A stretch of 24,244 nucleotides of DNA from a virus (Duplodnaviria > Caudoviricetes). The stretch spans positions 1 through 24,244 of IMG/VR virus record IMGVR_UViG_3300010366_000066. The stretch is one strand, 5' to 3'. Below, one piece after another: positions 1,150-24,189 of this stretch (its first letter is position 1; every line of letters starts with the position of its first letter). Made by a program: the position numbers and the translations under genes. The notes below the pieces were generated by a model, which had not been told where the DNA came from, made no database searches, and saw only the letters and a list, made by a program, of their open reading frames with translations.

Positions 1150-2798
1150 TGGGCCATCAACGTGTCGAAGAAGAACGTCACCATGCTCGCTGCGTTGTTC
1201 TGGAAATTGCCCGCACCCTCACGGTACTCAAGAGAGAGCGTGAACCAGCCCGTGGAAGAAGCCGGTACAGCCGTTACCTTGTAGCGAGCGAAAATTGTCA
1301 TGTCGTTCTTGTCCTGTATCCGGACTGCCTCGCCAGCAACCATCCTGTTCAGGATGGCAGTGATATCGACGCTTCCGCTGGAAAGAGTTGAAATATACAT
1401 TTCAGTCGCCAGGCTGAGGTCGCTGTTGTTCAACCGGACTTTCCCGTTCCCTGGATCAGCCGCTGCCGTCTGGTTCGAATACTGGTACTGAGAGGTCTCC
1501 AGCACTGGCGGCGCAGTCCAGGCTAGCTCCAGAACACCCGACCGCCGAAGCACGTCACCCACATCGCCGCCTGCTGGAATTTGCTCCCCGGTCATCGGAG
1601 TGGGTGGAGGAGTCGTACCACCATCGGAATCCCTCGGAGCCGAAGATGTAATAAAGAGAACGAGCTTCGCACGCCCAACTGTGCTGAACGTGTACGGAGT
1701 GCCGTCTGAATTCACCACGGCAAGGATCAGATTCGTCCCGGCCTTGAATTCACCGGCATACGAACCGCTACCTACCGTTGCTGGTTGTGAAAGCTGTTGG
1801 CCGGGAATTGCCGATGCGTTCTGCATGCCGAACCGTAGCTGTGAATTCAGAAGCCCATCGTTCAGCGAGAAGAGATAGGCATTCGGGAAGAGACTGTTGT
1901 TGTAATCCGGTTCCCACCCTTCTGAAATGTCCATGTACGTCATCGGAAGCACGACATCCCCCGGTGATGCCGCATAGACAGGAATTCCCGTGCCGATGCC
2001 GGGAGTGTCGAAGCCGAACTCGTAATTCACTACCTTCACGTCGTCACCCCCGGTTTTGTTTCCGTTCGTTGGCATTTCAATGGTGGGATACGGCGGTGGA
2101 ATCGGGCCTACTCCAAGCTCGACCAGCGAGCGAGAGATATCCACTCCCATCAGCCTCGACGTGTAGCCTCCAGCCACGGACACTTCCTTCATGAGAGCTA
2201 CAACGGTATACGTCCTGCCGAGCCAGGTGTTCGCTACACGGATCAAGTCCTCGATGGATTTCAACGTCTGCGTGGCTGTAGCCGTGCTCTGTTTTTCAGT
2301 GAGCAGCCCGGCAGTCCAAGACTGCGATGTTCCCGTTCCCGAGGCGACTCTGACGAGATAGCACCGCGCCATCGTCAGAAGAGTCAGTCCTGAAAGCTCA
2401 TTGTAATTCAAAGTCGCCGGATCGGGTACGACCGTGCCGCAATATCCCTCGACCACTGCGGCGGCTTCCTGGGCGACAATTTGCTCTTTCAAGGTCGGAT
2501 CGCGCAGAAGGACGCGCTCGACAACCTCGGAGACGACACTCGTCGTGCCACCCTGGATCGCAGACGACATTTCAGAGAATGCGCCTTTGGAATTCTCCCA
2601 CTGGATCGCGAACCAGTCGGTCTCACTGAGCGCCTGGTTCGTCGTGTAATCCGTGATGTAGCCCCCTGGAGAGCCGATAGCCGTGACGACCTCGATGGAT
2701 GAAAACGGCCCTGCCTGAGCCGGTGCCTCGTAGATGTGGAGCTTGACCAGATCAGGAACGTCGTTCGGAGGAACGAAATTCAGGAAGACAGAAGCCAT
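1146..2798 (-). CDS. putative head-tail adaptor fused to N-terminal Fn3/Ig-like and C-terminal fibre-like domains
   Basis: 550 aa. aa 1-85 are beta-rich (..DWFAIQWENSKGAFSEMS). aa ~88-195 are helical with a SQSWTAGLLTEKQS strand as in gp15/gp6 adaptors. Pro-rich linkers and a beta-rich C-terminus follow. Confidence 0.5.
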   Translation of the reverse strand: MASVFLNFVPPNDVPDLVKLHIYEAPAQAGPFSSIEVVTAIGSPGGYITDYTTNQALSETDWFAIQWENSKGAFSEMSSAIQGGTTSVVSEVVERVLLRDPTLKEQIVAQEAAAVVEGYCGTVVPDPATLNYNELSGLTLLTMARCYLVRVASGTGTSQSWTAGLLTEKQSTATATQTLKSIEDLIRVANTWLGRTYTVVALMKEVSVAGGYTSRLMGVDISRSLVELGVGPIPPPYPTIEMPTNGNKTGGDDVKVVNYEFGFDTPGIGTGIPVYAASPGDVVLPMTYMDISEGWEPDYNNSLFPNAYLFSLNDGLLNSQLRFGMQNASAIPGQQLSQPATVGSGSYAGEFKAGTNLILAVVNSDGTPYTFSTVGRAKLVLFITSSAPRDSDGGTTPPPTPMTGEQIPAGGDVGDVLRRSGVLELAWTAPPVLETSQYQYSNQTAAADPGNGKVRLNNSDLSLATEMYISTLSSGSVDITAILNRMVAGEAVRIQDKNDMTIFARYKVTAVPASSTGWFTLSLEYREGAGNFQNNAASMVTFFFDTLMAQ

Positions 2799-5161
2799 GA
2801 ATCCACCTTTGCATCGAGAAGAGCGGCCTTACGAGCCGTTTCACGCTCTGCTGCCGAGAGCAACTGAGCTTTGAATGCTGATGAAACAAGCGCTCCACCA
2901 TCACTGCCTCCTGTCGAGGCACTAACCAAGATGGCGTCAGGCATCTTACCTGAAATTGTGCCATCACCCGGAAGAAGGACATCCGTCCGGATACTGTATG
3001 AAATCCGAAGCGAGACCGTCGCAAAGCCGCCGAGCGAATAGGTCGGCGTGAGCGTCTTCCGAACTTCAGCGACGAGCTTGTATGTGAGGGTGACGGACTT
3101 GACACCGACAGTGTTGAGCCTGTAGGTGAGCGGCAGCGATTTCAGAACTCGCTGGCGGACATTGTACTTGAAGACCGGAGGTCGTGCAACCACGATCTGC
3201 AACCGGTACATGACGGTAACTTTCTTGACAACAGCGACTCGGACGTTGTAGCTGATCGGCAGGAGCTTTGCGGACGCTCTGGTCACCCTGTAACTAAGGC
3301 CGATTGCCGTCAGAACCTGACGCCGGACGTTGTATGCCGGTGAGACCTTCTTGACCGCCGCCTGATGCACCACGTACGAGAGCGGACGGTTCTTTGAAAT
3401 TGTGTTGATGAGCTTGTAATTCGCCGTGTACGACTTCGAGACCGTCTTCCGAATCCGGAACTGTAGACCCACAGCCGTTGAAATTGTTCTGCGGACGGCG
3501 TAGCTCAGTGGCAACGATTTCACCACTGTCCTTTTCACCATGTAGGAAAAACCGACCGCCTTACTGTACGTAGCCAGCAGGCTGTAGCTGAGTGGAAGAA
3601 CCTGCGTCACCCTGCCGATGGCGTAGCTCAGATCGAGAGTCTTCGCAACAGGCCGCCGAACACCATACGTGATGGCTAGAGATGTCAACAGCGGAACTGA
3701 AATCTTGTACGAGAGCGGCAAAGGCTTCCCGATGAAAATCCTTATATTGAAATTAACGGTCAGAGTCTTCGCAGCGACTCTCTGCTGCACCCTGTACGCA
3801 AACGTCGTCGCTGTGAAAATAGATTTCCTGACCGCATACGTCGGCGCAGTGGTCTTTGCAACCTGCCGCCTGACGTTGTAATTCAAAACGAGTTGCTTCA
3901 GTATCGGGCCTGAAATTTGATAACTGGGAGTAACGGTCTTCGACACCGGAATTCTGACGTTGTACGAGAGCGCAGCCGTTTTTGGAATCGCCCTGCGAAC
4001 GTTGTAGCTCAATGCCTGAGTCTTCGGTACCTGCTTCGTGACAAAGTACGTCAGACCGGCAGTCTTCGGAACTTGTCTCCGGACGTTGTAATTCAGGTTC
4101 AATTGCTTGACGACCGTAGACTGAGAGACAACGCTGTAATTCAGTGCCAGCGTCTTGGCAAGCCTCGCTGCAACCTTGTACGTAAGAGCTACAGATTTCG
4201 CTACGCTCTTCTGGACGTTGTAGCTGAGCGCGTATCCGTTTCCTGCAACCAGACCCGCGTTGTAATGCGCTGACACCCTGGCAGCCGACAGAACAGACGG
4301 GTAAAATGCAATTTCATCCATCGTCCCGTTGAGAGGCTGAGTGCCCCATTCGGAACCGATGAACAGACCGTTGGTCGCTGCGGATGAAAAATCGTAGTTG
4401 GGGTTAGTCAGAGTCGGTGTCTCGGAGACGCCATCGAGATAGAACACAACCGCACCGCCAATACCGGCTCGGGTGACGACGAGGTGGTGTGTGTTCGTGT
4501 CGGTTATTTTCAGAGTTGTCGTCTGGGCGCATGTTCCGGTAAAGCTCTTGTTCAGAGCAATCGTTCCGGTGGAATTGACGCGAACAGCAATGCCACCGTT
4601 GTACTGGTCGAACAAGTCTGTTGTTACGGCTGTACTAGTTCGCTTTACCCACATTTCAACCGAGAAGGTGTTCAGCGGAAATACAAGTCCGCCACGGCTT
4701 AGCCAGCCTGTAGCACCAGCACTGAAAAATCCTCTCGCCTTTGATGATGGGTCGCCAACCAGCAGCCCTGCCACCTGTGGCGTCGTATTGCCATCGCCCG
4801 TCATGTGATTTCCAGCGCCAGATGAGTCCTGTGGAAGCCCCGCCTCTTCCATTCGCCAGTAGCCCGTTGGCCCATCTGCCAGAATCACGGCGCTGTAAAC
4901 GTTGCTGATGCGACCGACAATTTTCCGAACGTTGTAGCTCAGCGCCAGCGACTTTGAGACAGGCTGTTTGACGGTATACTGAAATCCGCTGCCAACGAGA
5001 ACTTGCCTGCGGACGGTGTAATTGACAGCGAGTGTTTTTAGTGGAACGCTAGTGCGGACGGTGTAATTGACGACAAGCGACTTTACCGGAACCGTAGTCC
5101 GACCAACCTGAATTTCAGGATCGAACCAGCTATTACGGATCAGCGAGCCGTCGTACAGCAT
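2780..5161 (-). CDS. LamG/concanavalin-like lectin domain virion protein with ~15-aa KxLxLxYxV repeats
   Basis: LamG signature: ADGPTGYWRMEE...FSVEMWVK...HHLVVT...FYLDG...LNGTMDEIAFYPSVLSAARVSAHY. About 30 copies of a V-x-K-x-L-x-L-x-Y-x-V repeat lie around it. Confidence 0.75.
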   Translation of the reverse strand: MLYDGSLIRNSWFDPEIQVGRTTVPVKSLVVNYTVRTSVPLKTLAVNYTVRRQVLVGSGFQYTVKQPVSKSLALSYNVRKIVGRISNVYSAVILADGPTGYWRMEEAGLPQDSSGAGNHMTGDGNTTPQVAGLLVGDPSSKARGFFSAGATGWLSRGGLVFPLNTFSVEMWVKRTSTAVTTDLFDQYNGGIAVRVNSTGTIALNKSFTGTCAQTTTLKITDTNTHHLVVTRAGIGGAVVFYLDGVSETPTLTNPNYDFSSAATNGLFIGSEWGTQPLNGTMDEIAFYPSVLSAARVSAHYNAGLVAGNGYALSYNVQKSVAKSVALTYKVAARLAKTLALNYSVVSQSTVVKQLNLNYNVRRQVPKTAGLTYFVTKQVPKTQALSYNVRRAIPKTAALSYNVRIPVSKTVTPSYQISGPILKQLVLNYNVRRQVAKTTAPTYAVRKSIFTATTFAYRVQQRVAAKTLTVNFNIRIFIGKPLPLSYKISVPLLTSLAITYGVRRPVAKTLDLSYAIGRVTQVLPLSYSLLATYSKAVGFSYMVKRTVVKSLPLSYAVRRTISTAVGLQFRIRKTVSKSYTANYKLINTISKNRPLSYVVHQAAVKKVSPAYNVRRQVLTAIGLSYRVTRASAKLLPISYNVRVAVVKKVTVMYRLQIVVARPPVFKYNVRQRVLKSLPLTYRLNTVGVKSVTLTYKLVAEVRKTLTPTYSLGGFATVSLRISYSIRTDVLLPGDGTISGKMPDAILVSASTGGSDGGALVSSAFKAQLLSAAERETARKAALLDAKVDSWLLSS

Positions 5162-19785: not shown

Positions 19786-19814
19786 TTCCGGAGCCGATGA
19801 AATCCTGCTACCTT
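19786..19814 (+). promoter_or_regulatory. rightward promoter with extended -10
   Basis: TTCCGG-N17-TACCTT with TG at -15/-14; the TGCTAC core recurs at 23547-23555, 23882-23890 and 24236-24244 on the minus strand. Confidence 0.5.
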
Positions 19815-19847
19815 GGGGTCTCGGCCGGAGGTTCGAATCGGCCGGAA

Positions 19848-19860
19848 GAACCTTGAAAAC
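19848..19860 (+). promoter_or_regulatory. boxA-like antitermination element 1
   Basis: GAACCTTGAAAAC, similar to Gram-positive rrn boxA (GnTCTTTGAAAAC); preceded by a hairpin at 19821-19845. Confidence 0.55.
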
Positions 19861-20042
19861 CTAGGTCTCCGAAACGGCCATTAGACCGCGTGGCTGCATG
19901 CCTCTTTGCGGGCCGTTTCGTCAGAGACCTAGCGCTACTCAATCGGCGCGCTCCCGTAGGCATTCGTCGGGCATCTGGCTCTACGCATGAACTAACGATG
20001 AATGGACGAGAATCTGAAAACCTGCGGAGTCGGTTGAGAGTG
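19861..20042 (+). ncRNA. structured leader RNA (two abutting domains)
   Basis: Domain 1: CTAGGTCTC/GAGACCTAG plus CGAAACGGCC/GGCCGTTTCG (19861-19932). Domain 2: CTCAATCG/CGGTTGAG, CGTAGG/CCTGCG and CATTCGTCG/CGATGAATG with G-U pairs (19933-20042). Confidence 0.65.
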
Positions 20043-20054
20043 AACCTTGAAAAC
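20042..20054 (+). promoter_or_regulatory. boxA-like antitermination element 2
   Basis: Exact second copy of GAACCTTGAAAAC. Confidence 0.55.
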
Positions 20055-20058
20055 CAGA

Positions 20059-21499
20059 CAGAGTGTGCGTTCAATCCATCCCCTCGGGGGGTTCTTTTCA
20101 TACCCTGAGAGGATCGAAACGAATGCACAATCCATACCGCCCTGGCGCGAATCGTTTCTACATCGCGGAACAGGCAATCGCGGGCAAGTCTCAGAGCGAG
20201 ACGTTCAACGCTCTTCGGCCGATGGTCGAGAGCGAGACTCTCGTCTTCAAACGGAATCCGACTCGGAGTGAGAAGGCTATGGGTATCACTACCCGTATCC
20301 CCCTCGCTTCGAAGGCTCTCCAGCTACAGGCTCTCCGCGATGAAATCGGACGGGTCTATCACGTCCTCGGATTGTCCATCGGACGCAAGTTCGATGAGCA
20401 GGAAATTCCGAGGATTCCGACCCCTCCGACCCCTGAAATCCCGATGGAAGAGGCTCCGGTTCCCGACGAAATTCCGACCCCTGAAGAGGAGCCGGAAGAC
20501 GAGGAGATTCCGGAGGCTCCGGAGACGCCTATCGCCAAGGGCAAAATGAAGATCAGGGAAGAGGTTAACTACTTCATTCGGCGGTGCAATGAAATCCGCG
20601 ACAGAATCGCGGATAGAGTCCGACTTGGTGAGACTGCTCTGGACTGGATTTCAAACCGTCCTTCGCAGGCTGCCATTCGGCTCATTCCGAAAGGCATTCC
20701 CGCCGATGCCCTGCTCTACACTATGACGCTCCATTGGAGTGCGGATAGTCGGCAGTCCTACGGGATTTCCGATTATGACATGGTGGCACTGTCCAAGTCC
20801 ATCATGGAAGAGCGGAATATCACTGAAATCGTCCGCAAGGATGGCAGGGTCGAGAGACCACATGTGATGTTCGGTTACGTCCTCACTCTGGCGGAATGTC
20901 GAATCCCCATTTTCCTGGTCGGTGAATTCGGGACTGGAAAGTCCTGGCTAGCCGGTCAAATCGCCGATTACCTCGGCGTGGATTACGGGGAGACGCCGAT
21001 GTGTCTCGGCGCTACTAGAGGTGATTTGCTCGGAAGATTTACGGCGAATCCCGATCAGGCTTTCATCGCTGCTCGGTTTGCTGAAATCTACGGGAATGGT
21101 GGAGTCTTCAACTTCGAAGAGTTCGACGCGGGAGACCCTGGACTGCTCATTGTTCTGAATAACGCAATGGCAGGGAATCACTTCTACAACTCGATGAACG
21201 GTGACATGATCGAAAGGTCTCCGGAATTCATCGCTGTAGCGACCGGAAATACGTACGGTTATGGCGCGAATACCCGCTACACGGCTCGGGAGCACCTCGA
21301 CGAGGCTACTCTCGACCGTTGGCGCATGGGTCGCGTTTGGGTCGATTTCGACCGTGACTTGGAACAATTCCTGGCCGATTCCTACCTGGATTCGATCGGA
21401 ATTTCCAAGTAGTCTCGATCCCGCTCTCTGAGCGGGTTTGCAGTACCTAGGGCACAAGATGCCCGACCCCCTGAGGGGATGAATTGAGCGCACACTCTG
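20059..21499 (+). repeat. inverted-repeat pair 1 enclosing the AAA gene (20059-20093 / 21465-21499)
   Basis: 35 positions pair as RNA, with 3 G-U wobbles and one C-A mismatch. Confidence 0.9.
20123..21412 (+). CDS. MoxR/CbbQ/CobS-like AAA+ ATPase
   Basis: GEFGTGKS Walker A, FNFEEFD Walker B, ATGNT sensor, LDEATLDRW Arg finger; acidic Pro-rich linker; start moved to ATG 20123 (GAGAGGA SD). Confidence 0.9.
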   Translation: MHNPYRPGANRFYIAEQAIAGKSQSETFNALRPMVESETLVFKRNPTRSEKAMGITTRIPLASKALQLQALRDEIGRVYHVLGLSIGRKFDEQEIPRIPTPPTPEIPMEEAPVPDEIPTPEEEPEDEEIPEAPETPIAKGKMKIREEVNYFIRRCNEIRDRIADRVRLGETALDWISNRPSQAAIRLIPKGIPADALLYTMTLHWSADSRQSYGISDYDMVALSKSIMEERNITEIVRKDGRVERPHVMFGYVLTLAECRIPIFLVGEFGTGKSWLAGQIADYLGVDYGETPMCLGATRGDLLGRFTANPDQAFIAARFAEIYGNGGVFNFEEFDAGDPGLLIVLNNAMAGNHFYNSMNGDMIERSPEFIAVATGNTYGYGANTRYTAREHLDEATLDRWRMGRVWVDFDRDLEQFLADSYLDSIGISK

Positions 21500-21501
21500 A
21501 A

Positions 21502-22621
21502 ATTCGGTAGCTCGCTCATTCAGGGTTCTTCCGGAGAGCGAGTAGAGAATGAAAACCATGCGAGCACGGTATGCAGGTTACTGCACGCGGTGCAAGGGTC
21601 GAATCAGAGTAGGCGAATCGATGGTCTACCTCGGAAAAGGGAAGACGTTCCATCCCCTCTGCTACAGGGGGGATGAAAACGGAGATTCCCCGGAGGCTCC
21701 GACTATCGATGTTCCGCCGAAACGGCCGACACTTCCGCCGCAAAGAGGACTGAAGACGTTCACCGTGGATTGGGGAGAGTTGAAACAGAATCTCCTCGCA
21801 GCATTCCGCGACGATTTCAGAGCCTTTCCTCAACATGCCTCTGAGGTGAAATCTCACCTAGTCCATCCCAATGAAGGATGGCAGGGATACGGCGGAGAGG
21901 ACTGCAAACGGTGGCTAGAGTCTGGTTACAACTCCGACGCGATTAGGAATCTCGGTGACTTCACTCCTCCCCTCCGAAAGAAACGGCGAATCCGTTTCGT
22001 GGAAGAGGGGGATGAATTTCACTATGACCTGGCCGCTTCGGGAGCCGATAACTTCATGAGTGAGTGGACTCAACGGGAGAGAATTCCGGGGATGAAAATC
22101 AACATCGCTCTAGGGTTCTCGGCGGACGTCTCTGAGACCGTCCTGAATCGCTATGCGAAGTGGGTATGCAAGGCGATTTATTCCGTCATCGATATCGGGA
22201 TTGATCCTGAAATCTCGATTCACTACACGGCGGACAGGATGGTGGAAGGGGAAGAGGGGCCGCACGATACCCGAATCCGAGTGAAGAAAGAGCGCGAGGT
22301 GATGGATTTCCAGTCCTTCTCCGCAATGCTCTCTCCTGCTCAATTCCGGGCCTATATGTTCTGCGCGATGTATCTGCATTGCGAGAGCAGGGGTCGGAAG
22401 ATTACGGGAGGTCACGGTACGTCAAGTCGGTTCTTCACTCAATGGGGAGTCGATTGGGATAAAGAGCAGGAAATGCTCTACATCCGCTGCAACTATGGCG
22501 GATACGGATTCTCCGAGGAAACAATGGAGAGTCAACTCAGAGCAGCGTTGAAGGAAATGGCTAGCTAGTCCAGCCAGGAATTACAATTCAGGGGGAACCC
22601 TGAATAAGCGAGCTATCGAAT
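21502..22621 (+). repeat. inverted-repeat pair 2 enclosing the VWA-like gene (21502-21532 / 22591-22621)
   Basis: 31 positions pair, with 3 G-U wobbles and one C-A mismatch. Confidence 0.9.
21549..22568 (+). CDS. degenerate VWA/CobT-like partner of the AAA ATPase with N-terminal Zn ribbon
   Basis: ARYAGYCTRC...HPLC N-terminus; EEGDEFHYDLAASG, INIALGFS and SPAQFR motifs; typical pairing after a MoxR ATPase. Confidence 0.6.
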   Translation: MKTMRARYAGYCTRCKGRIRVGESMVYLGKGKTFHPLCYRGDENGDSPEAPTIDVPPKRPTLPPQRGLKTFTVDWGELKQNLLAAFRDDFRAFPQHASEVKSHLVHPNEGWQGYGGEDCKRWLESGYNSDAIRNLGDFTPPLRKKRRIRFVEEGDEFHYDLAASGADNFMSEWTQRERIPGMKINIALGFSADVSETVLNRYAKWVCKAIYSVIDIGIDPEISIHYTADRMVEGEEGPHDTRIRVKKEREVMDFQSFSAMLSPAQFRAYMFCAMYLHCESRGRKITGGHGTSSRFFTQWGVDWDKEQEMLYIRCNYGGYGFSEETMESQLRAALKEMAS

Positions 22622-22686
22622 ACGGAATTCCGGAGAGCAGCGGAGAGGATTTCATCCTGAGAGAACGCACACTGAAAGGATCGAGA

Positions 22687-22929
22687 ATGTTCTACGCTTT
22701 GCTTCCCCGGCCGGACGGTTCAATCTTCTACCTGAACCTGTCCGGAATCTACCTCGAATCGGACGCGAATTTCAAGCTGTCTGAGACGCTCGAATCAATC
22801 ACGAATTCCATCGAGAACGTTCGGTGGGATTTCCTGATCGATACGGAAATGTTCCCGTCACTCGAAGAGTATCGGGAATTCCCGTGCTATCGGATGCCCG
22901 ATGGTGTCCTGCGCTGCGAGGGGTGCTGA
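22687..22929 (+). CDS. hypothetical protein
   Basis: 80 aa; AAAGGA SD; Cys-rich C-terminus. Confidence 0.65.
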   Translation: MFYALLPRPDGSIFYLNLSGIYLESDANFKLSETLESITNSIENVRWDFLIDTEMFPSLEEYREFPCYRMPDGVLRCEGC

Positions 22930-22931
22930 GA

Positions 22932-23027
22932 ATGGACTCTGAGAGCCTGTTCTGGGCAATTTCAGCGGCACCTATCGTGCTCGCCTACCTCGTCTGGTAC
23001 CTCTGGTCGAATTTCCTCGATTACTAG
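22932..23027 (+). CDS. 31-aa membrane peptide MDSESLFWAISAAPIVLAYLVWYLWSNFLDY
   Basis: GAGGGG SD, ATG 2 nt after the upstream stop, one hydrophobic helix. Confidence 0.55.
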   Translation: MDSESLFWAISAAPIVLAYLVWYLWSNFLDY

Positions 23028-23103
23028 CCTGAAACAGCGCTAGAAAGTCGGAGAATTTCCTACCCCCTCTCCGCTGCTCTCCCGAATTCCGAATTTCATT
23101 TTC

Positions 23104-23140
23104 AGCCCGGAGGCAATTCCCGCTCCGGGCTTTTTTATTT
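23104..23140 (+). terminator. intrinsic terminator of the rightward operon
   Basis: AGCCCGGAG/CTCCGGGCT stem followed by TTTTTATTT. Confidence 0.85.
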
Positions 23141-23818: not shown

Positions 23819-23876
23819 AAAAAACCCCCGGCCTTGTGAGCCGGGGGTCTGTTCTCCGGAGAGCGAGTCCGGGAGC
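23819..23876 (-). ncRNA. candidate antisense sRNA 2 (~58 nt), or 3' UTR of the 98-aa gene
   Basis: Same TCTGCTACGCT -10 box (23882-23892); terminator ACCCCCGGC/GCCGGGGGT plus U-run (23819-23848); carries ACUCGCUCUCCGGAGAAC. Confidence 0.55.
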
Positions 23877-23892: not shown

Positions 23893-24189
23893 CTAGGGCT
23901 TGTAAATCCAGTCTGGCTTGGGCTGGAGGATTCCCTTCTCGACCAGACCGTCCGAGAACACGGTGTCCTTGCGGAGCGCGTCGATGCGGGAAGCGTAGAC
24001 CCAGTGATCGGGCTGCGCGGCGGTGAGGAAGCGATCCACGTTGAAATTCGGGTTCGTCTCCTTGAGCGCGTCCACGAAGGCGAGCCGCATGCCCGCCATG
24101 TGCGAGTGCTGCATGGTGTCGTCCGGGGAGATGCGCTCGGCCTCGGCCTTAAGCACGTCCGCGATAAGCTGAAAGTCCTTCTTGGTCAT
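23893..24189 (-). CDS. conserved small phage protein (MT.KDF..IA....NP.F...RF type)
   Basis: 98 aa, GAAAGGAAG SD, TGCTACTGT extended -10 at the window end. Confidence 0.75.
   Translation of the reverse strand: MTKKDFQLIADVLKAEAERISPDDTMQHSHMAGMRLAFVDALKETNPNFNVDRFLTAAQPDHWVYASRIDALRKDTVFSDGLVEKGILQPKPDWIYKP

Follow-up and report, generated by a model that had tools for sequence, protein, structure and literature searches.

What does a phage gain when its transcript folds so that whole protein genes lie in the loops of long stems? The question is raised by a short plus-strand operon at 19.8–23.1 kb of IMG/VR record IMGVR_UViG_3300010366_000066, whose positions 1 to 24,244 form the window, that is, the entire stretch of DNA analysed here. 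This 24-kb stretch comes from a tailed, uncultured soil phage and carries terminase, portal, and capsid-like genes on the minus strand. The operon consists of an AAA+ ATPase gene, a DUF7192-like gene, and two small open reading frames (ORFs), enclosed by three stems. 16S and 23S ribosomal RNAs (rRNAs) are looped out by such stems and released by RNase III, and the initial annotation of the window suggested a comparable route for the messenger RNAs (mRNAs) of this operon. The reading favoured here, to which a probability of about 0.6 is assigned, combines rRNA-like transcription with a translation lock formed by each 5' arm, release of that lock when the stem closes, and RNase III cutting into mRNAs with paired ends. 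The boxA-like leader and the predicted lock are additions to that annotation.

The three stems are both the longest inverted repeats of the window and its best long-range helices, with scores of 29.9, 26.2, and 24.3 against 17.8 for the next; in 40 dinucleotide shuffles of 19819–23140 the best helix reached 13.9 on average and 16.9 at most. Their arms, on the plus strand like every operon feature below, were recovered at the annotated positions: 20059–20093 with 21465–21499 for stem 1, 21502–21532 with 22591–22621 for stem 2, and 22623–22648 with 23066–23091 for stem 3. Stem 2 can be extended to 21536/22587 (arms 21502–21536 and 22587–22621) and stem 3 to 22619/23095 (arms 22619–22648 and 23066–23095). 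The stems abut as described, with measured spacers of 2 nt and 1 nt, and a recount gave the same pairing: the eight non-Watson–Crick pairs of stems 1 and 2 comprise six G-U and two C-A pairs, and each stem has one internal mismatch (C-A, C-A, and a single C-C in stem 3). Each stem also forms in the minimum-energy fold of its own gene (z −6.1 for stem 3). The terminator noted after the stems corresponds to an intrinsic-terminator-like hairpin with a U run at 23104–23136, which a simple terminator scanner missed because its loop measures 10 nt. The inner part of the stem 2 3' arm (22586–22605) can alternatively form a local hairpin of 8 bp, paired perfectly around a GGAA loop, whose end coincides with a predicted cut.

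Relatives of the operon were retrieved with an alignment of 42 AAA proteins, which yielded 6 loci from viral contigs and 48 from metagenomes. One of these, L010, is the contig of the window itself, and 9 near-duplicates were removed. Single-protein scans of viral contigs returned none of the relatives that the alignment-based scans retrieved, and a search of genome_contigs gave no relative of the operon. A strand-neutral search for helices yielded 81 stems spread over 35 loci; after removal of one local helix and replacement of one alternative register, 80 stems remained, 3 of them from the window. The helices span 25–45 bp and loop out 0.3–1.7 kb. Among loci with both flanks, the AAA stem is kept in 26 of 28 (exceptions L020 and L034), and the stem of the second gene in 24 of the 26 with enough flank (exceptions L006 and L034). 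In four complete relatives of 67–74 kb, 16 of the 17 helices scoring above 18 fall inside the operon. Gordonia phage Sephiroth, Mycobacterium phage Aegeus, and Tunturi_4, which are cultured but distant and have a comparable gene pair, show no gene-enclosing stems.

Pairing is kept even though the arm sequences are not, median identity being 34% within one genome and 34% between genomes. Covariation was assessed in disjoint nearest pairs of loci after aligning 5' and 3' arms separately by sequence. The AAA stem showed 46 two-sided pair-keeping changes and 13 G-U changes against 6 others over 246 positions (11 of 13 pairs usable), and the second stem 25 and 10 against 8 over 135 positions (6 of 13 pairs usable), ratios that are inflated because the stems had been selected for pairing. 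Outside the centre of the motif described below, coding-strand pairs include 129 G-U against 38 A-C, although detection was strand-neutral. The compensatory changes that the initial annotation had proposed looking for thus outnumber disruptive ones in both stems, and the sequences support pairing at the RNA level. The stems are real and are conserved in this phage clade, changing by compensatory mutation.

The question of what becomes of the finished stems is addressed by a motif that they share. Aligned over 16 columns, the 80 stems converge on GYTTnnnnRAR with an information content of 8.0 bits, compared with 3.8–4.1 in four shuffles. Column 2 is T-A in 68/80 and column 9 is A-T in 69/80, a spacing of 7, so that, in the register taken from the motif alignment, position 2 of the proximal box is A-U or U-A on both sides (71/80 and 69/80), seven pairs apart. 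In vivo RNase III sites of E. coli have A-U or U-A at positions D and D', seven pairs apart by the position scheme of that paper (PMC6212723), and the proximal box prefers G-C, A-U, A-U, A-U, with G-C beside the cut being inhibitory (PMC1540722). In a comparison that covers the proximal box and the central pairs, the phage motif fits the geometry of an RNase III site and differs in the two central pairs. Non-Watson–Crick pairs peak at columns 4 (21) and 7 (13), adjacent to the predicted cuts, and the single internal mismatches of window stems 1, 2, and 3 fall at columns 7, 4, and 4, the register of stem 2 having been shifted by one by hand. Helix length also suits RNase III, for which some 22 bp or more should surround the cut, with a median of 15 bp on the inner side and a few stems shorter outside.

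In the window, cuts are predicted between 20075 and 20076 and between 21484 and 21485 in stem 1, between 21519 and 21520 (register uncertain by 1 nt) and between 22605 and 22606 in stem 2, and between 22633 and 22634 and between 23082 and 23083 in stem 3. The predicted products are 20076–21484, 21520–22605, and 22634–23082. No family match for RNase III, RNA ligase (PF09414), or RtcB was obtained in the window and four complete relatives, so the cutting enzyme would be that of the host. The proposal that the transcript is processed in an RNase III-like manner into end-paired messages is supported by covariation, sense-strand G-U bias, and the two-fold motif, while cleavage itself stays a prediction from sequence; host RNase III likely cuts the finished stems into single mRNAs with paired ends. 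No correspondence was seen between the predicted cuts and the points where the contigs of short loci end. Replacement of the clamp by local hairpins after cutting was considered and mostly rejected, as two local folds beat the duplex in only 10/80 stems; local 3' hairpins are nevertheless enriched across the clade (47/80 at z below −1.64, compared with 18% in a coding control).

A second function of the arms is suggested by where the genes begin. Start codons lie a median of 27 nt beyond the inner stem end (67 stems) and stop codons a median of 14 nt ahead of the 3' arm (52 stems), so a closed stem leaves the ribosome-binding site (RBS) outside the helix. Before closure, the 5' arm is predicted to find another partner. 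For the 57 of 80 stems with a Shine–Dalgarno (SD)-supported start within 45 nt, the median cost of opening −16 to +3 was 12.3 kcal/mol in the nascent RNA and 5.4 with the stem closed, against 7.5 in 73 ordinary genes. Shuffled arms gave a median of 6.8 (own arm higher in 54/57), as did arms from other loci (own arm higher in 53/57), and the arm of the nearest relative gave 7.4 compared with 13.1 for the own arm, which was higher in 28/35 and lower in 4/35. Of the two states, the long stem is the more stable in all 57 cases. For window genes 1, 2, and 3 the computed cost falls on closure from 20.2 to 5.9, from 13.7 to 0.1, and from 11.3 to 6.1, and each window arm beats 25/25 foreign arms at its own RBS. 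The predicted first partners are 20103–20132 (SD and start codon of the AAA gene) for stem 1 and 22687–22713 (start of gene 3) for stem 3, and the 5' arm of stem 2 is predicted to fold first over 21530–21550 (RBS of gene 2). Each 5' arm is thus predicted by folding to mask the RBS of its own gene until the 3' arm displaces it.

The register of this arm–RBS pairing is variable, the U of the start codon pairing at one fixed column in 9/57 and being unpaired in 19/57. An explanation of the motif as a mere anti-start-codon was rejected, since the motif is retained in the 48 stems whose AUG is not paired in the corresponding register (T-A in 41/48, A-T in 45/48). The variable register, and the motif being kept where AUG pairs elsewhere, indicate that lock and motif are separate constraints.

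The way in which the operon begins also resembles an rRNA operon, with a putative promoter, a hairpin, and two boxA-like words recognized from sequence. In the window, an extended −10 promoter-like element (TGnTAnnnT; its function is presumed from the pattern) at 19806–19814 is followed by a short hairpin at 19822–19844 (centroid fold), in the boxB position of rrn leaders, and by boxA-like word 1 (GAACCTTGAAAAC) at 19848–19860. A folded, gene-free leader of about 180 nt with two long hairpins (19861–20039, fold z −3.4) then leads to a second boxA-like word, recognized by pattern, at 20042–20054, 4 nt upstream of stem 1. Across the clade, TTGAAAAY occurs at most 70 nt upstream of the motif in 16/26 first stems, that of L005 having been set by hand, compared with 3/54 other stems and a genome-wide chance of 0.013, and a second copy lies 137–316 nt upstream in 17/22. 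The flanks of the word, which were no part of the search, are conserved as well, with G(−5) in 33/35 sites and C(−2) in 30/35; matching G and C flank the NusB-binding B. subtilis boxA consensus AUGAUCUUUGAAA (PMC13753749), which word 1 of the window also fits. An extended −10 element is found 21–58 nt upstream of the distal word in 10/15 loci (background chance 0.01), usually with a small hairpin between the two, as judged by eye in several relatives. The same word opens the 16S and 23S stalks of Actinomycetota rrn operons, mostly as TTGAGAAC and in 19/301 genomes as TTGAAAAC; the Actinomycetota loci used for comparison (L122–L139) were selected for carrying a boxA word. In L009 and L038 a boxA-like word lies inside the second 5' arm, as in 23S stalks.

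Several observations concern the RNA between the two words. In relatives it forms a gene-free structured stretch of 120–260 nt, in many closed by its own helix, and it is alike in L007 and L026 and in L009 and L038. It is possibly a non-coding RNA; an Rfam search of the leader region gave nothing at gathering level. One contig (L027, 1–20) starts 3 nt upstream of a boxA-like word.

Taken in order, the steps of the proposed mechanism would be as follows. Host polymerase would initiate at the extended −10 promoter, and NusB/S10 would load at boxA, as rrn biology suggests, shielding the nascent RNA from Rho; being locked, this RNA would be free of ribosomes and open to attack by Rho, which a boxA-loaded polymerase would resist. 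By the same analogy, the loaded complex would hold the first 5' arm near the polymerase. This arm would pair with its own SD and start codon, as computed, until the 3' arm completes the 25–45 bp helix, which covariation shows, and the RBS opens, as the folds predict. Cutting by RNase III at the two-fold motif would then strip off the outer half of the lock and leave each mRNA closed by about 15 bp. According to one proposal for E. coli, a boxA-loaded complex retains the 5' arm until the trailer appears (PMC8632103), and loss of boxA costs only 2- to 3-fold there (PMC10250234). Action of boxA on mRNAs has been shown (PMC5725501). We infer Nus loading, cleavage, mRNA stability, early timing, and an actinobacterial host. 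Taken further, the scheme would mean that the clade has taken the host's way of producing rRNA and rebuilt it for protein genes as an operon-wide checkpoint of the form "translate only when complete", tied to host Nus factors and RNase III, an extension whose chances are put a little short of even.

A rival explanation regards the stems, in line with the initial annotation, as RNase III sites that yield end-protected single mRNAs, the RBS pairing being a by-product and translation being coupled as usual; the results on helix, motif, and covariation all hold without a lock, and the variable arm–RBS register, with its 9/57 pairings at a fixed column and 19/57 unpaired, agrees with this. A by-product should not track its own RBS, yet the own arm outperforms shuffled arms, foreign arms, and those of the nearest relative, which makes this explanation unlikely. 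Another rival keeps the switch and dispenses with the cut, so that closure opens the RBS and clamps the ends of a protected polycistronic RNA to which RNase III binds poorly or never. Stem closure alone is indeed predicted to open the RBS, the motif poorly matches rRNA stalks of the sampled Actinomycetota, and its TTCAT part is complementary to AUGAA. An uncut switch does not account for the two-fold form of the motif, its retention in the 48 stems that lack AUG pairing in register, or the mismatches beside the predicted cuts, and it is considered improbable. That the cut ends are ligated into covalently closed circular mRNAs, a variant already raised in the initial annotation, draws on geometry, as both product ends would lie at one helix end. 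PF09414, PF01139, and PF00636, the only ligase families searched, are unmatched in five phage records (four complete), so circles would need a host ligase, and they are judged very improbable.

The arms might instead act as DNA, as inversion or recombination sites or as single-strand structures for cassette exchange, and here the variation among relatives has to be considered. Cassettes vary in content, number, and order, with optional cassettes upstream, up to two downstream, and up to five in all; one small-gene family stands upstream in 3 loci and downstream in 2. In L004 (7578–9221), L008 (7670–9437), and L048 (94–1899) an outer stem holds a small stem-closed cassette together with the AAA gene. 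L020 is a near-identical twin of L019 from the AAA start onward, differing in the leader and the outer half of the first 5' arm and converging at the motif, which reflects either a recent module swap or an assembly chimera. Variable cassette content, anticipated when exchangeable borders were first suggested, is seen among relatives, but nothing indicates that the stems are recombination sites: at 34% identity, both within and between genomes, the arms are unlike sites of one recombinase, and the G-U bias tracks the coding strand. Inversion between the arms finds no support, as the DUF7192 match lies on the AAA strand in 35/35 loci that have one and one DNA assembly, examined as contigs and perhaps the one from which the window came, contains no joints. 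Nor do relatives display the common repeat sequence or both orientations that an invertible segment or transposon would leave. A DNA-level role for the arms is accordingly regarded as extremely improbable.

One relative, L034 (1500–5648), serves as a natural control, although a single case. Its AAA and DUF7192 genes are followed by two small ORFs, the spacers are short, and stems, boxA-like word (TTGAAAAY), and lock are missing together, RBS opening costing 7.0, 3.6, and 4.4 kcal/mol. In a quick tree it is nested beside the stem-bearing L031 (support 98).

A number of points weigh against the combined reading of rRNA-like transcription, lock, and cutting. L034 keeps the genes without the system, so that these can do without stems, boxA, and lock, and in L020 one stem has lost the pairing of its outer half. 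With respect to cutting, central columns 5 and 6 of the motif are A-U-rich (A-T 45 and T-A 37 of 80), whereas in vivo sites of E. coli favour G-C at the two central pairs (PMC6212723). The rRNA stalks of the sampled Actinomycetota score at most 4.7 on the phage matrix, against a self-trained median of 8.5, and the actinobacterial host is only hinted at by gene content. For stem 2 of the window, either register gives a single good half-site, and the lock of window gene 3 is not predicted to ease by the cut alone (11.4 compared with 11.3 kcal/mol). The lock was computed from equilibrium folds of short fragments in 57/80 stems that are related by descent, and it need not form in time inside the cell. 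Regarding the leader, the TTGAAAAY pattern was picked after the sequences had been viewed, and the word is absent before 10/26 first stems. Cleavage, RNA ends, and expression are all predictions from the DNA sequence.

Among known systems, the rrn operon is the closest, and by analogy the phage operon would work like one without being one. Both have a promoter, a small hairpin, and a boxA-like word directly before the first long helix (PMC10250234, PMC8632103, PMC13753749), and in both long helices loop out the inserts, those of the phage covarying and abutting as in the 16S–23S spacer. In the rrn case the leader has the order boxB-boxA-boxC, an antitermination complex of Nus factors and SuhB is formed, and RNase III cuts the leader–trailer helices. 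The phage loops differ in holding protein genes, in up to five cassettes of variable content, some of them nested; the helices are not copies of the sampled rRNA stalks, and the 5' arm has a second, predicted role as an anti-RBS strand. Lambdoid nut sites likewise represent phage use of boxA and host Nus factors (PMC10250234, PMC8632103), but here the hairpin precedes boxA as in rrn, and gene-enclosing helices are not described for lambda in the available portions of these sources. At nut sites boxA acts with the N protein; an N-like protein was neither identified nor sought here.

T7 early mRNA is also a phage polycistron for host RNase III (as predicted here) with a similar box geometry; it carries five RNase III signals, one of which, R1.1, is a local stem of 49 nt with a cut in a single strand (PMC3867540, PMC8708148). 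The arms described here, in contrast, lie 0.4–1.4 kb apart, enclose whole genes, and predict double cuts and paired ends. In the type I toxin mRNAs aapA3 and hok, metastable SD-masking hairpins are replaced by a 5'–3' long-distance interaction, and 3' trimming activates the message (PMC6733600). Shared with the present system is a nascent RNA that hides its SD until the transcript is complete, as computed here, one strand having two successive partners. Full-length pairing silences those mRNAs, however, whereas the long-range helix is here predicted to open the RBS (5.4 kcal/mol), and the phage layout has no antitoxin and is repeated along an operon. In Staphylococcus aureus icaR, the 5' and 3' untranslated regions of one mRNA pair to form an RNase III substrate; that pairing masks the SD, prevents translation, and sets off decay, which is the opposite sign (PMC3868564). 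No published description of gene-enclosing stems in phage mRNA was found in the incomplete literature collection searched.

As for the host, relatives encode an Rpf-like transglycosylase, DnaE, RecA, and ThyX, which we take as a hint at Actinomycetota; WhiB was absent from the five phage records. Searches with terminase and capsid led to distant phages with a mixture of hosts, and a DNA search of 51 genomes of one actinobacterial class gave short matches at chance level only. In one relative (G003), a helicase gene (L069, 13629–15839) has an intein-like domain.

Bacterial and phage mRNAs are normally translated during synthesis and are short-lived. If the favoured reading is correct, the clade has a new means of controlling timing and stability, built from rRNA parts, in which translation is delayed until the gene is complete and the message ends are clamped; such a checkpoint would deliberately uncouple translation from transcription. 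The likely gain to the phage, which answers the opening question, is that translation is limited to complete messages protected at both ends. Dozens of sequence variants occur naturally in the clade, the stemless relative provides an internal control, and the cut sites are predicted exactly. The system would thus make a disputed role of the Nus complex, bringing a 5' arm to its distant partner, testable on non-ribosomal RNA, and the cassette could also be carried into actinobacterial hosts as a module for stable expression.

The genes themselves are of mixed character. The first (20123–21412, 429 aa) encodes an AAA+ ATPase with matches to AAA_5 and phrog_249 and is MoxR/CobS-like. The second (21549–22568, 339 aa) has an N-terminal Cys-rich domain and falls narrowly below the DUF7192 threshold (26.1 bits compared with the Pfam cut-off of 27). 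Its predicted structure (pLDDT 75.6) has a C-terminal domain with weak matches, mostly to VWA domains, with NorD near the top and a best Z of 5.2, and yielded no Foldseek match at E 0.001; a VWA-like product, as proposed in the initial annotation, is plausible from this model. The order of an AAA_5 gene followed by a protein with weak, mostly VWA fold matches recalls MoxR AAA+/VWA pairs such as NorQ/NorD and RavA/ViaA, from which the phage pair differs in the weakness of the partner's fold match (Z 5), and distant cultured phages have the pair without stems. The loops enclose ORFs rather than rRNA, and RF00177 gave no match. Within stem 3, an 80-aa ORF (22687–22929) had no match in family searches or, at 0.9, in a further search, and a 31-aa hydrophobic ORF (22932–23027) matches phrog_13140 at E 0.007.

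Some further features lie outside the stems or in other phages. A 98-aa ORF at 23893–24189 on the minus strand of the window is homologous (E 1.5e-6) to a small-gene family found within the stem cassettes of five relatives, and it ends at its own terminator-like hairpin (23822–23850). Past the last stem, by 10–70 nt, a recurring word of the approximate form CGGRAGR-n4-6-CCCCTGC often replaces a clear terminator, as seen by eye in L004, L005, L007, L019, L026, L029, L035, L039, and L045. In Gordonia phage Sephiroth (L001, 208–4032) a repeated palindromic word surrounds the AAA operon, and in Tunturi_4 (L003, 3254–4236) a gene-free, repeat-rich stretch of 2.3 kb lies upstream of the AAA gene. 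Elsewhere in the window, a 793-aa protein encoded on the minus strand (2780–5161) has a Laminin_G_3 domain, and its gene contains many imperfect 45-nt repeats.

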